This document shows positions 254 to 1,408 of a stretch of DNA of 3,673 bases, piece by piece (position 1 is the stretch's first letter; the number at the start of each line of letters is the position of its first letter). The stretch is from Escherichia coli (GTDB lineage: Bacteria > Pseudomonadota > Gammaproteobacteria > Enterobacterales > Enterobacteriaceae), in NCBI RefSeq assembly GCF_003334765.1, contig NZ_QOWT01000069.1. One strand, written 5' to 3'. Position numbers and translations under genes: made by a program. The notes under the pieces were generated by a model. It saw only the letters and a program-made list of their open reading frames with translations, searched no databases and was not told the origin of the DNA.

Positions 254-1408
254 TCAGGCCACCGGTGCCGGGTTAAACACTGCCAGCTGGTTATGCAATC
301 CCCATTGATCCGAGAAAGTTTTCTTCTTCCCGCTGGCGACGTCGAGAATAAAGTGGAACAACTTCCAGCCCACCTCTTCAATGGTCTCTTCGCCGGTAGC
401 GATAGTGCCTGCGTTAATATCCATTAAATCAAACCAGTGGTTCGCCAGCCCGGTGCGGGTCGCCATTTTAATGACGGGTACCGCCATCAGGCCGTACGGC
501 GTACCACGGCCGGTCGTAAACACTTGCACGGTGATACCCGAAGCCACCTGTTGCGTGCCACAGACAAAATCGCTGGCTGGCGTCGCGGCGTAAATTAATC
601 CGCGTTTAGTCGGGTGTTGACCGGGCGACAGCACTTCAACAATTGCGGTTTTACCCGATTTAGCAATGGAGCCGAGTGCTTTCTTTACCACGTTGGCGAG
701 GCCGCCCTTTTTGTTGCCCGGCGAAGGGTTGGCGCTGCGGTCGGTTTTGCCCATATCGGGATAGTTATCGTATCAGGCCATCTCTTCGAGCAGACGCCTG
801 CCCACTTCTTCATTGATGGCGCGTGGCGTTAACAGATGAATGGCGTCGCGTACTTCAGTGACTTCGGAGAACATCACCGTTGCGCCGCAGCGCACCAGCA
901 GGTCAGAGTCGTAGCCGACAGCGGGGTTAGTGGTAACGCCGGAGAACGCGTCGCTGCCACCGCACTGCATGCCCACCACCATCACTTCGCCACCGAAGTT
1001 TGGGTTCAGCGCAATATTATGGATGGTGCGAATTGGCACCACGGCGGCCGGTACATTAATCGCTACGCCACAGCCGTAGAGGTGGTTCAAGTCGACCACG
1101 CCGTCGATGCTCGGGTATTTCGGCAGCAGGTCGCGTTCGATAATTTTAACCACGTAGTCCTCAACGTCTGCCATGCAGTGCACGCTGGTGGTAATACCCA
1201 ACAGGTTTTTGGTGCCCACGCTGCCGTCGGCGTTGCGGTAACCTTCAAAGGTGTAATCTTCCTGCGGCGGCAGTGGCTCCGGCACTTTGGTCGCCCGAGG
1301 CAGGGTGTTAAGCGGCGGCGCTTTCGGTAGCGTGACCGTGGATTCGTCGATCCAGCTGCCTTTGGCGACATCGCGTACCGTGTAACCGATAGCGAATGAT
1401 TTCACCAT
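254..1408 (-). pseudogene. garD: UxaA/GarD-family sugar-acid dehydratase (galactarate/altronate dehydratase-like), disrupted: in-frame TGA, 5' truncation, probable internal deletion
   Basis: ORFs 773..1408 (211 aa) and 254..754 (166 aa) lie in the same minus-strand frame, separated only by TGA at 773..775; reading through gives ...[32 protein letters not shown]... Family motifs are present: [63 protein letters not shown]. The C-terminal tail (...[28 protein letters not shown]) matches my recollection of GarD rather than UxaA, hence the tentative symbol. The ATG at 1408 has no Shine-Dalgarno (upstream mRNA is pyrimidine-rich, AACCUUCCUCA-AUG) and an in-frame stop sits 5 codons upstream (1421..1423), so the N-terminal part of the SAF domain is missing. 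Total length is about 377 codons against roughly 495-523 for intact family members. Confidence 0.7.

Follow-up and report, generated by a model that had tools for sequence, protein, structure and literature searches.

The window, by which we mean the whole stretch of 3,673 nucleotides that was analysed, is 99.9 to 100% identical over its entire length to 24 complete Escherichia coli chromosomes. Positions 1 to 253 represent the 3' end of an island copy of agaR (annotated at 1 to 191 in strain 746), which is convergent with a garD remnant that occupies positions 254 to 1421 of the opposite (minus) strand. The sole separator of the two is a perfect hairpin with an 11-bp stem, ATGCCCGATAA-ACAAGCG-TTATCGGGCAT (198 to 226); at the K-12 locus, in contrast, the prlF-yhaV toxin-antitoxin pair lies between garD and agaR, and this pair is absent from the island copy. 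The full agaR gene of strain 746 is 98.4% identical to that of K-12, and the order of the island module is garD'-agaR-aldolase fragments-malX-malY-like. The RefSeq/PGAP annotation of strain 746 lists the garD remnant as a pseudogene, with the text 'UxaA family hydrolase; frameshifted; internal stop; incomplete; missing N-terminus'; its pseudogene status is already known, since RefSeq flags the locus.

Beyond the remnant, the annotation of strain 746 places a hypothetical protein gene at 1571 to 2083 (plus strand), which is an intact open reading frame (ORF) of 170 residues that some records call a 'UCP030791 family putative phage-derived protein' and for which no NCBIfam match was found. It is followed on the same strand by a broken 'DNA-binding protein' gene of the ECs1377 family (2172 to 2492) and by an IS66 tnpC fragment that is N-terminally truncated and frameshifted (2511 to 3097), and these three features are typical island debris. 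The IS66 fragment sits between acnB and the garD module, and the exact junction is present in only 24 complete genomes. The last feature is acnB (3335 to 3673, minus strand; 11335 to 19673 in L001, the cit cluster included). This island acnB is apparently intact, with 96.8% nucleotide and 99% amino acid identity to K-12 acnB, and presumably adds to the native copy; in strain 746 it directly precedes the full citGXFEDC citrate-lyase cluster, which is followed by an MFS transporter gene.

The island-borne garD remnant

The sequence at 254 to 1421 (minus strand) is a decaying second copy of garD, the galactarate dehydratase gene, which is borne on an island and has become a pseudogene. It matched the solved GarD structure 6U7L with an E value of 1.5e-232, and it resembles K-12 GarD (b3128; 6U7L; TIGR03248; SAF, GD_AH_second and GD_AH_C domains) as a homologue by descent with a convergent agaR neighbour. 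Unlike K-12 garD, however, it is a mosaic that lacks codons 1 to approximately 59 and the codons for residues approximately 213 to 285, so that its lesions comprise a 5' truncation, an 11-bp deletion, a deletion of 218/219 nt and an internal TGA stop codon.

In the DNA alignments, garD homology reaches its 5' limit at 1410 to 1421 (minus strand), at approximately codon 59 to 60 of K-12, and the start codon, the promoter and most of the SAF domain are replaced upstream of this breakpoint by unrelated island DNA. The same breakpoint was observed in all of the island alleles examined (four undeleted and three deleted). No Pfam match to the SAF domain (PF08666) was obtained with the read-through protein, and no sigma-70-like promoter was found upstream of the remnant in the interval from 150 to 1650. 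Within the remnant, the codon for Trp351, which is TGG in K-12, has become an in-frame TGA (773 to 775, minus strand), as seen in both the translation and the alignments, where the protein reads ...LLEEMA*YDNY...; this stop codon leaves two ORFs, one of 211 and one of 166 codons, and, like the breakpoint, is common to the four undeleted and three deleted alleles.

The smaller of the two deletions was located in the alignments at 1389 to 1392 (minus strand), where 11 bp corresponding to K-12 nucleotides 206 to 216 are missing between flanks with TAT microhomology. It is restricted to the class of alleles with the large deletion. The 11-bp deletion shifts an otherwise out-of-frame ATG (1406 to 1408) into the GarD frame and so produces the spurious start, 'MVKSF...', from which the 211-codon ORF is read. 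Gene callers nevertheless report 'UxaA family' proteins of 211 or 243 residues from the remnant, and the corresponding cluster (P0001) has 238 member sequences.

Among the features tested for membership of GarD, only the C-terminal domain is retained: GD_AH_C (PF20629) was matched over model positions 4 to 240 of 242 (E = 3.5e-88), a score obtained by translating through the TGA inside that domain. The remnant has no uninterrupted ORF with a start of its own, because the native start is missing and the TGA intervenes, and the second domain, GD_AH_second (PF04295), is incomplete, with a match to model positions 1 to 88 of 136 only and without the LGCEKL motif. Membership of the TIGR03248 equivalog family is defined by a whole-protein score of at least 730.85 bits in one collinear match; the read-through protein scored 677.9 bits, compared to 940.6 bits in a single stretch (2 to 507) for the K-12 GarD control. 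Given these lesions, galactarate dehydratase activity would be expected to be absent, and the remnant is predicted to encode no functional enzyme.

The deletion junction and its repeat

The larger deletion lies at 959 to 991 (minus strand), where GEVMVVG is followed directly by MQCGG across the junction; the coding sequence here is the reverse complement of TGGCGAAGTGATGGTGGTGGGCATGCAGTGCGG. Four independent comparisons agree on a gap at this point. In the DNA alignments, 219 nt of K-12 garD or 218 nt of the NU14 island allele are missing, a loss that in K-12 numbering corresponds to GarD residues approximately 213 to 285, or 73 codons. The match to 6U7L falls into two stretches (chain residues 75 to 219 and 284 to 525) that are offset by 73 residues, and the VIG and VVG anchors in this comparison are likewise 73 residues apart. 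Pfam analysis of the read-through protein placed GD_AH_C directly after the truncated GD_AH_second match, and the TIGR03248 profile was matched from 59 to 200 and from 266 to 506, with profile positions 201 to 265 missing. From the Pfam domain limits and the conservation in our own alignment of homologues, the lost part was mapped to the final third of the second domain and to the linker that precedes the C-terminal domain; it includes the near-invariant LGCEKL motif.

The first-pass annotation had read the protein across this junction in the same way, and its reading agrees exactly with the translation of 254 to 1408 (minus strand). It had proposed an in-frame deletion of 60 to 70 codons that removed a conserved core segment. 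The deletion is confirmed, and it is in frame relative to full-length GarD, but its size is 73 codons; the loss of LGCEKL and of the end of the second domain is borne out by Pfam, 6U7L, TIGR03248 and the alignment, and the profile alignment that it had suggested as a check gave a gap of approximately 65 profile positions, as it had anticipated. It had also placed the deletion between two short similar motifs, GLGCE and GMQCGG. Short similar sequences do lie at the ends, but the actual repeat is TGGTGGTGGG, just upstream of those motifs.

A perfect 10-bp direct repeat, TGGTGGTGGG, is found at both deletion ends in the closest undeleted alleles, those of NU14, Nissle 1917, clone D i2 and strain 9. 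Each of these four remnants has precisely two copies, at positions 452 and 670, which are 218 nt apart. At the protein level, one repeat specifies (M)VVG, immediately ahead of LGCE, and the other (L)VVG, immediately ahead of MQCGG. The proximal copy is flanked as GTGA-TGGTGGTGGG-TCTCGG and the distal copy as GAGC-TGGTGGTGGG-CATGCA. The window retains one copy (972 to 981, minus strand; cccaccacca on the plus strand) at the deletion junction, with the hybrid flanks GTGA-TGGTGGTGGG-CATGCA, in which the 5' flank is that of the proximal copy and the 3' flank is that of the distal copy. A single copy was present in each of the three deleted alleles that were checked, and excision in silico of one repeat and the spacer from NU14 gave the junction of the window, except for one unrelated substitution. 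Identical repeats at the endpoints, with one copy and hybrid flanks left behind, are what defines a deletion between short direct repeats.

A repeated 10-mer is not in itself rare in a sequence of this length, at least one being present in 61% of shuffles of 1.4 kb; what carries the argument is that the repeats fall exactly on the deletion endpoints. K-12 garD has the repeat in imperfect form only (TGGTGATTGG and TGGTCGTTGG), which suggests that it is specifically the island allele that is prone to this deletion. The repeat is a (TGG)3 run. In the sense orientation of the NU14 remnant (L002, positions 668 to 679), a perfect Chi octamer, GCTGGTGG, overlaps the distal repeat and is destroyed by the deletion.

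Allele classes and divergence in E. coli

The island copy of garD was found in 504 of 5426 complete E. coli genomes. The deleted class accounts for approximately 315 records, counted as those with the 82-nt junction in one uninterrupted piece at an identity of at least 99%, and the undeleted class accounts for approximately 191 genomes, which include UTI89, NU14, Nissle 1917, ATCC 25922 and clone D i2. The deleted allele is present in at least two contexts, beside the acnB/cit cluster, as in the window, and beside a fucP-rbsK-DeoR region. The undeleted sister allele has approximately 97% DNA identity to the remnant in the window. This UPEC/B2-type allele (NU14, UTI89, Nissle 1917, ATCC 25922 and clone D i2) shares with the window the same module, the 5' truncation and the TGA; unlike the window, it has the 218-nt segment, with a TAG and a 1-nt deletion inside it, the 11 bp, both copies of TGGTGGTGGG and the Chi octamer.

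Two deleted alleles, those of RIVM_C036204 (L004) and WCHEC025943 (L006), have an extra TAA at K-12 nucleotide 1114 and several further substitutions, which indicates that the decay is still ongoing. A metagenome contig (L010; ENA, 3823 nt, 1.9x coverage) joins the 5' end of the native garD gene and its prlF-yhaV-agaR flank to a deleted allele with the TGA. We considered whether the matching hit (P0002) was a hybrid of native and island garD generated by gene conversion of the working gene, and hold this reading to be unlikely on the grounds of the low coverage of the contig and of a search in which no complete E. coli genome had the arrangement as contiguous sequence; the contig is probably an assembly chimera.

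Divergence from K-12 is unevenly distributed along the remnant. In 100-nt bins, the identity to K-12 garD is 92 to 99% over the 3' third (254 to 748, minus strand) but only approximately 71 to 84% over the 5' two-thirds (749 to 1421), except for one short bin of 31 nt. Likewise, the synonymous divergence between the island copy and K-12 is 1.25 to 1.45 over K-12 nucleotides 181 to 1080, compared with approximately 0.15 to 0.18 over nucleotides 1081 to 1572, and the switch point of the mosaic lies within a few tens of nucleotides of the TGA stop codon. Such a structure points to recombination long ago between a foreign garD gene and one like that of E. coli. We rejected the possibility that the segment at the junction is an insertion into the undeleted allele: in NU14 it has 73 to 79% identity to K-12, like the rest of the 5' part, and it is therefore not derived from the native gene.

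Between the island copy and K-12 the dN/dS ratio is 0.06 to 0.10. Between the deleted and undeleted classes it is 0.97, from 28 differences only (7 synonymous and 21 nonsynonymous), and in the part that forms the 211-codon ORF it reaches 1.32; within the deleted class it is 0.32, from 10 differences only. The contrast between the first two values indicates that most of the divergence arose while the gene was functional elsewhere and that evolution has been neutral since the classes split. Disabling lesions shared between the classes, together with neutral substitution since the split, are the properties of a pseudogene, and the island copy has both, with the reservation that the substitution counts are small.

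Origin and meaning of the deleted allele

We consider it very probable that the window carries a dead island copy of garD which later underwent a deletion between 10-bp repeats and in which the reading frame was kept by coincidence. The copy would first have lost its promoter, start codon and SAF domain and gained the TGA at codon 351; the deletion would then have taken one copy of TGGTGGTGGG and approximately 208 nt between the copies, most likely through slipped-strand mispairing at replication or another RecA-independent path that uses short homology. Slippage as the mechanism and the succession of the lesions are both inferred; the latter assumes that the shared lesions were inherited and not spread by recombination between alleles. 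The gene appears to have been dead before the deletion because the truncation and the TGA are common to the deleted and undeleted classes. With a progenitor like the surviving undeleted alleles, the loss would have been 218 nt, a length not divisible by three, and would have included an internal TAG. The first-pass annotation had noted that the reading frame was kept. Relative to full-length GarD it was, but in a gene that was already dead, with its start and SAF domain lost and with a shared TGA, the preservation of the frame would have no functional meaning. The chromosomal garD gene elsewhere in the genome would supply the dehydratase activity.

Deletions in E. coli between repeats of approximately 10 bp that lie a few hundred base pairs apart are classically the result of RecA-independent slippage, and short-direct-repeat deletions of this RecA-independent type have been described for lacI and in plasmid tandem-repeat assays. 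The deletion in the window has the signature of this textbook type, since, like the lacI and plasmid examples, it has perfect endpoint repeats, of which one copy was kept, and removed a few hundred base pairs; unlike them, its mechanism is deduced from sequence alone, and its repeat is a (TGG)3 run that overlaps a Chi site. Replication slippage between the short direct repeats would be the simplest mechanism. It can also be envisioned that the same deletion arose by double-strand-break repair, either in association with RecBCD and Chi or by single-strand annealing at the 10-bp repeats, and the position of the distal repeat inside a Chi octamer that is intact in the undeleted allele and destroyed in the deleted one is compatible with such a route. 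However, a single Chi octamer is nothing unusual in 1.4 kb of E. coli-like DNA, and general knowledge of how deletions between repeats of this size form in E. coli favours slippage. Although the nucleotide sequence does not by itself separate the two, we regard break repair as unlikely.

The remaining alternatives to a deletion in a dead gene concern the reality of the gap and its consequences. One is that the short form belongs to a natural UxaA/GarD subfamily that never had the segment, so that nothing was deleted. UxaA-family proteins of approximately 380 amino acids exist as split forms without the SAF domain, and the overall length of about 377 codons given in the first-pass annotation would fit such a form; 377 is indeed the sum of the two ORFs in the window, but the remnant is in reality not one uninterrupted ORF, since the TGA breaks it into 211 and 166 codons. 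Moreover, the locus lacks a start codon, the sister allele has the segment, the second Pfam domain is matched only in part, and in our alignment the segment, with its near-invariant LGCEKL, was present in 14 of 14 diverse homologues and absent from the window sequence alone. These homologues have 57 to 92% identity to K-12 GarD and come from enterobacteria, Burkholderiales, Firmicutes, Acidobacteria and others; the search that yielded them returned mostly partial proteins of no more than 370 amino acids, and they were used as junction-spanning sequences and not as a guide to the length of the family. The positions that are at least 90% conserved and absent from the window are L213, G214, C215, E216, K217, L218, Q244, F251, L266, L269, R272, R274, L282 and V283. 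Full-length orthologues collinear with the window, which the first-pass annotation had named as the result that would speak against a deletion, were not what the comparisons revealed, since the segment was present both in these homologues and in the approximately 191 genomes with the sister allele (>95% identity). The alignments argue that there is no natural short-form subfamily here, and we hold this reading to be extremely unlikely. The possibility that the gap arose in sequencing or assembly, by collapse between the similar motifs, might draw on the (TGG)3 run in the repeat and on the low-coverage metagenome contig, itself a likely chimera, that contains the deleted allele. The identical 82-nt junction is, however, unbroken in approximately 315 complete-genome records from many laboratories and platforms and in at least two island contexts; it is therefore not an assembly error, and the probability of an artefact is negligible. 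A further suggestion is that the deletion was selected and, together with the 11-bp deletion, created a new protein of 211 residues with a regulatory or other nonenzymatic role. The two deletions do yield an ATG-initiated ORF in the GarD frame that comprises part of domain 2 and the start of domain 3, gene callers predict it (238 sequences in cluster P0001), the deleted allele is the commoner one (approximately 315 versus 191), and the dN/dS ratio within the deleted class is low, at 0.32, although on 10 differences only. On the other hand, the ORF has no promoter-like site upstream, stops at the inherited TGA, has lost the catalytic-core motif and diverged from the sister allele in a neutral manner (0.97, and 1.32 in the ORF part), further lesions such as the TAA at K-12 nucleotide 1114 are accumulating in the deleted class, and PGAP treats the locus as a pseudogene. 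A selected new protein is thus very unlikely, and the more particular proposal that the 211-residue ORF might be kept in approximately 6% of complete E. coli genomes for a nonenzymatic role, such as galactarate binding or interference with the native GarD oligomer, is less likely again.

As the decay of a passenger gene on a genomic island, the deletion in a dead garD copy is routine and has little biological weight, and the finding is an ordinary one. It does call for caution in annotation and in metagenome assembly, where the remnant gives rise to 'UxaA family' calls of 211 and 243 residues and where at least one low-coverage contig apparently splices it into the native garD gene. The junction is a handy lineage marker for one form of the island module, and the locus offers a clear-cut case from nature of a deletion between perfect 10-bp repeats, for which the alleles from before (approximately 191) and after (approximately 315) the event are both circulating in E. 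coli.
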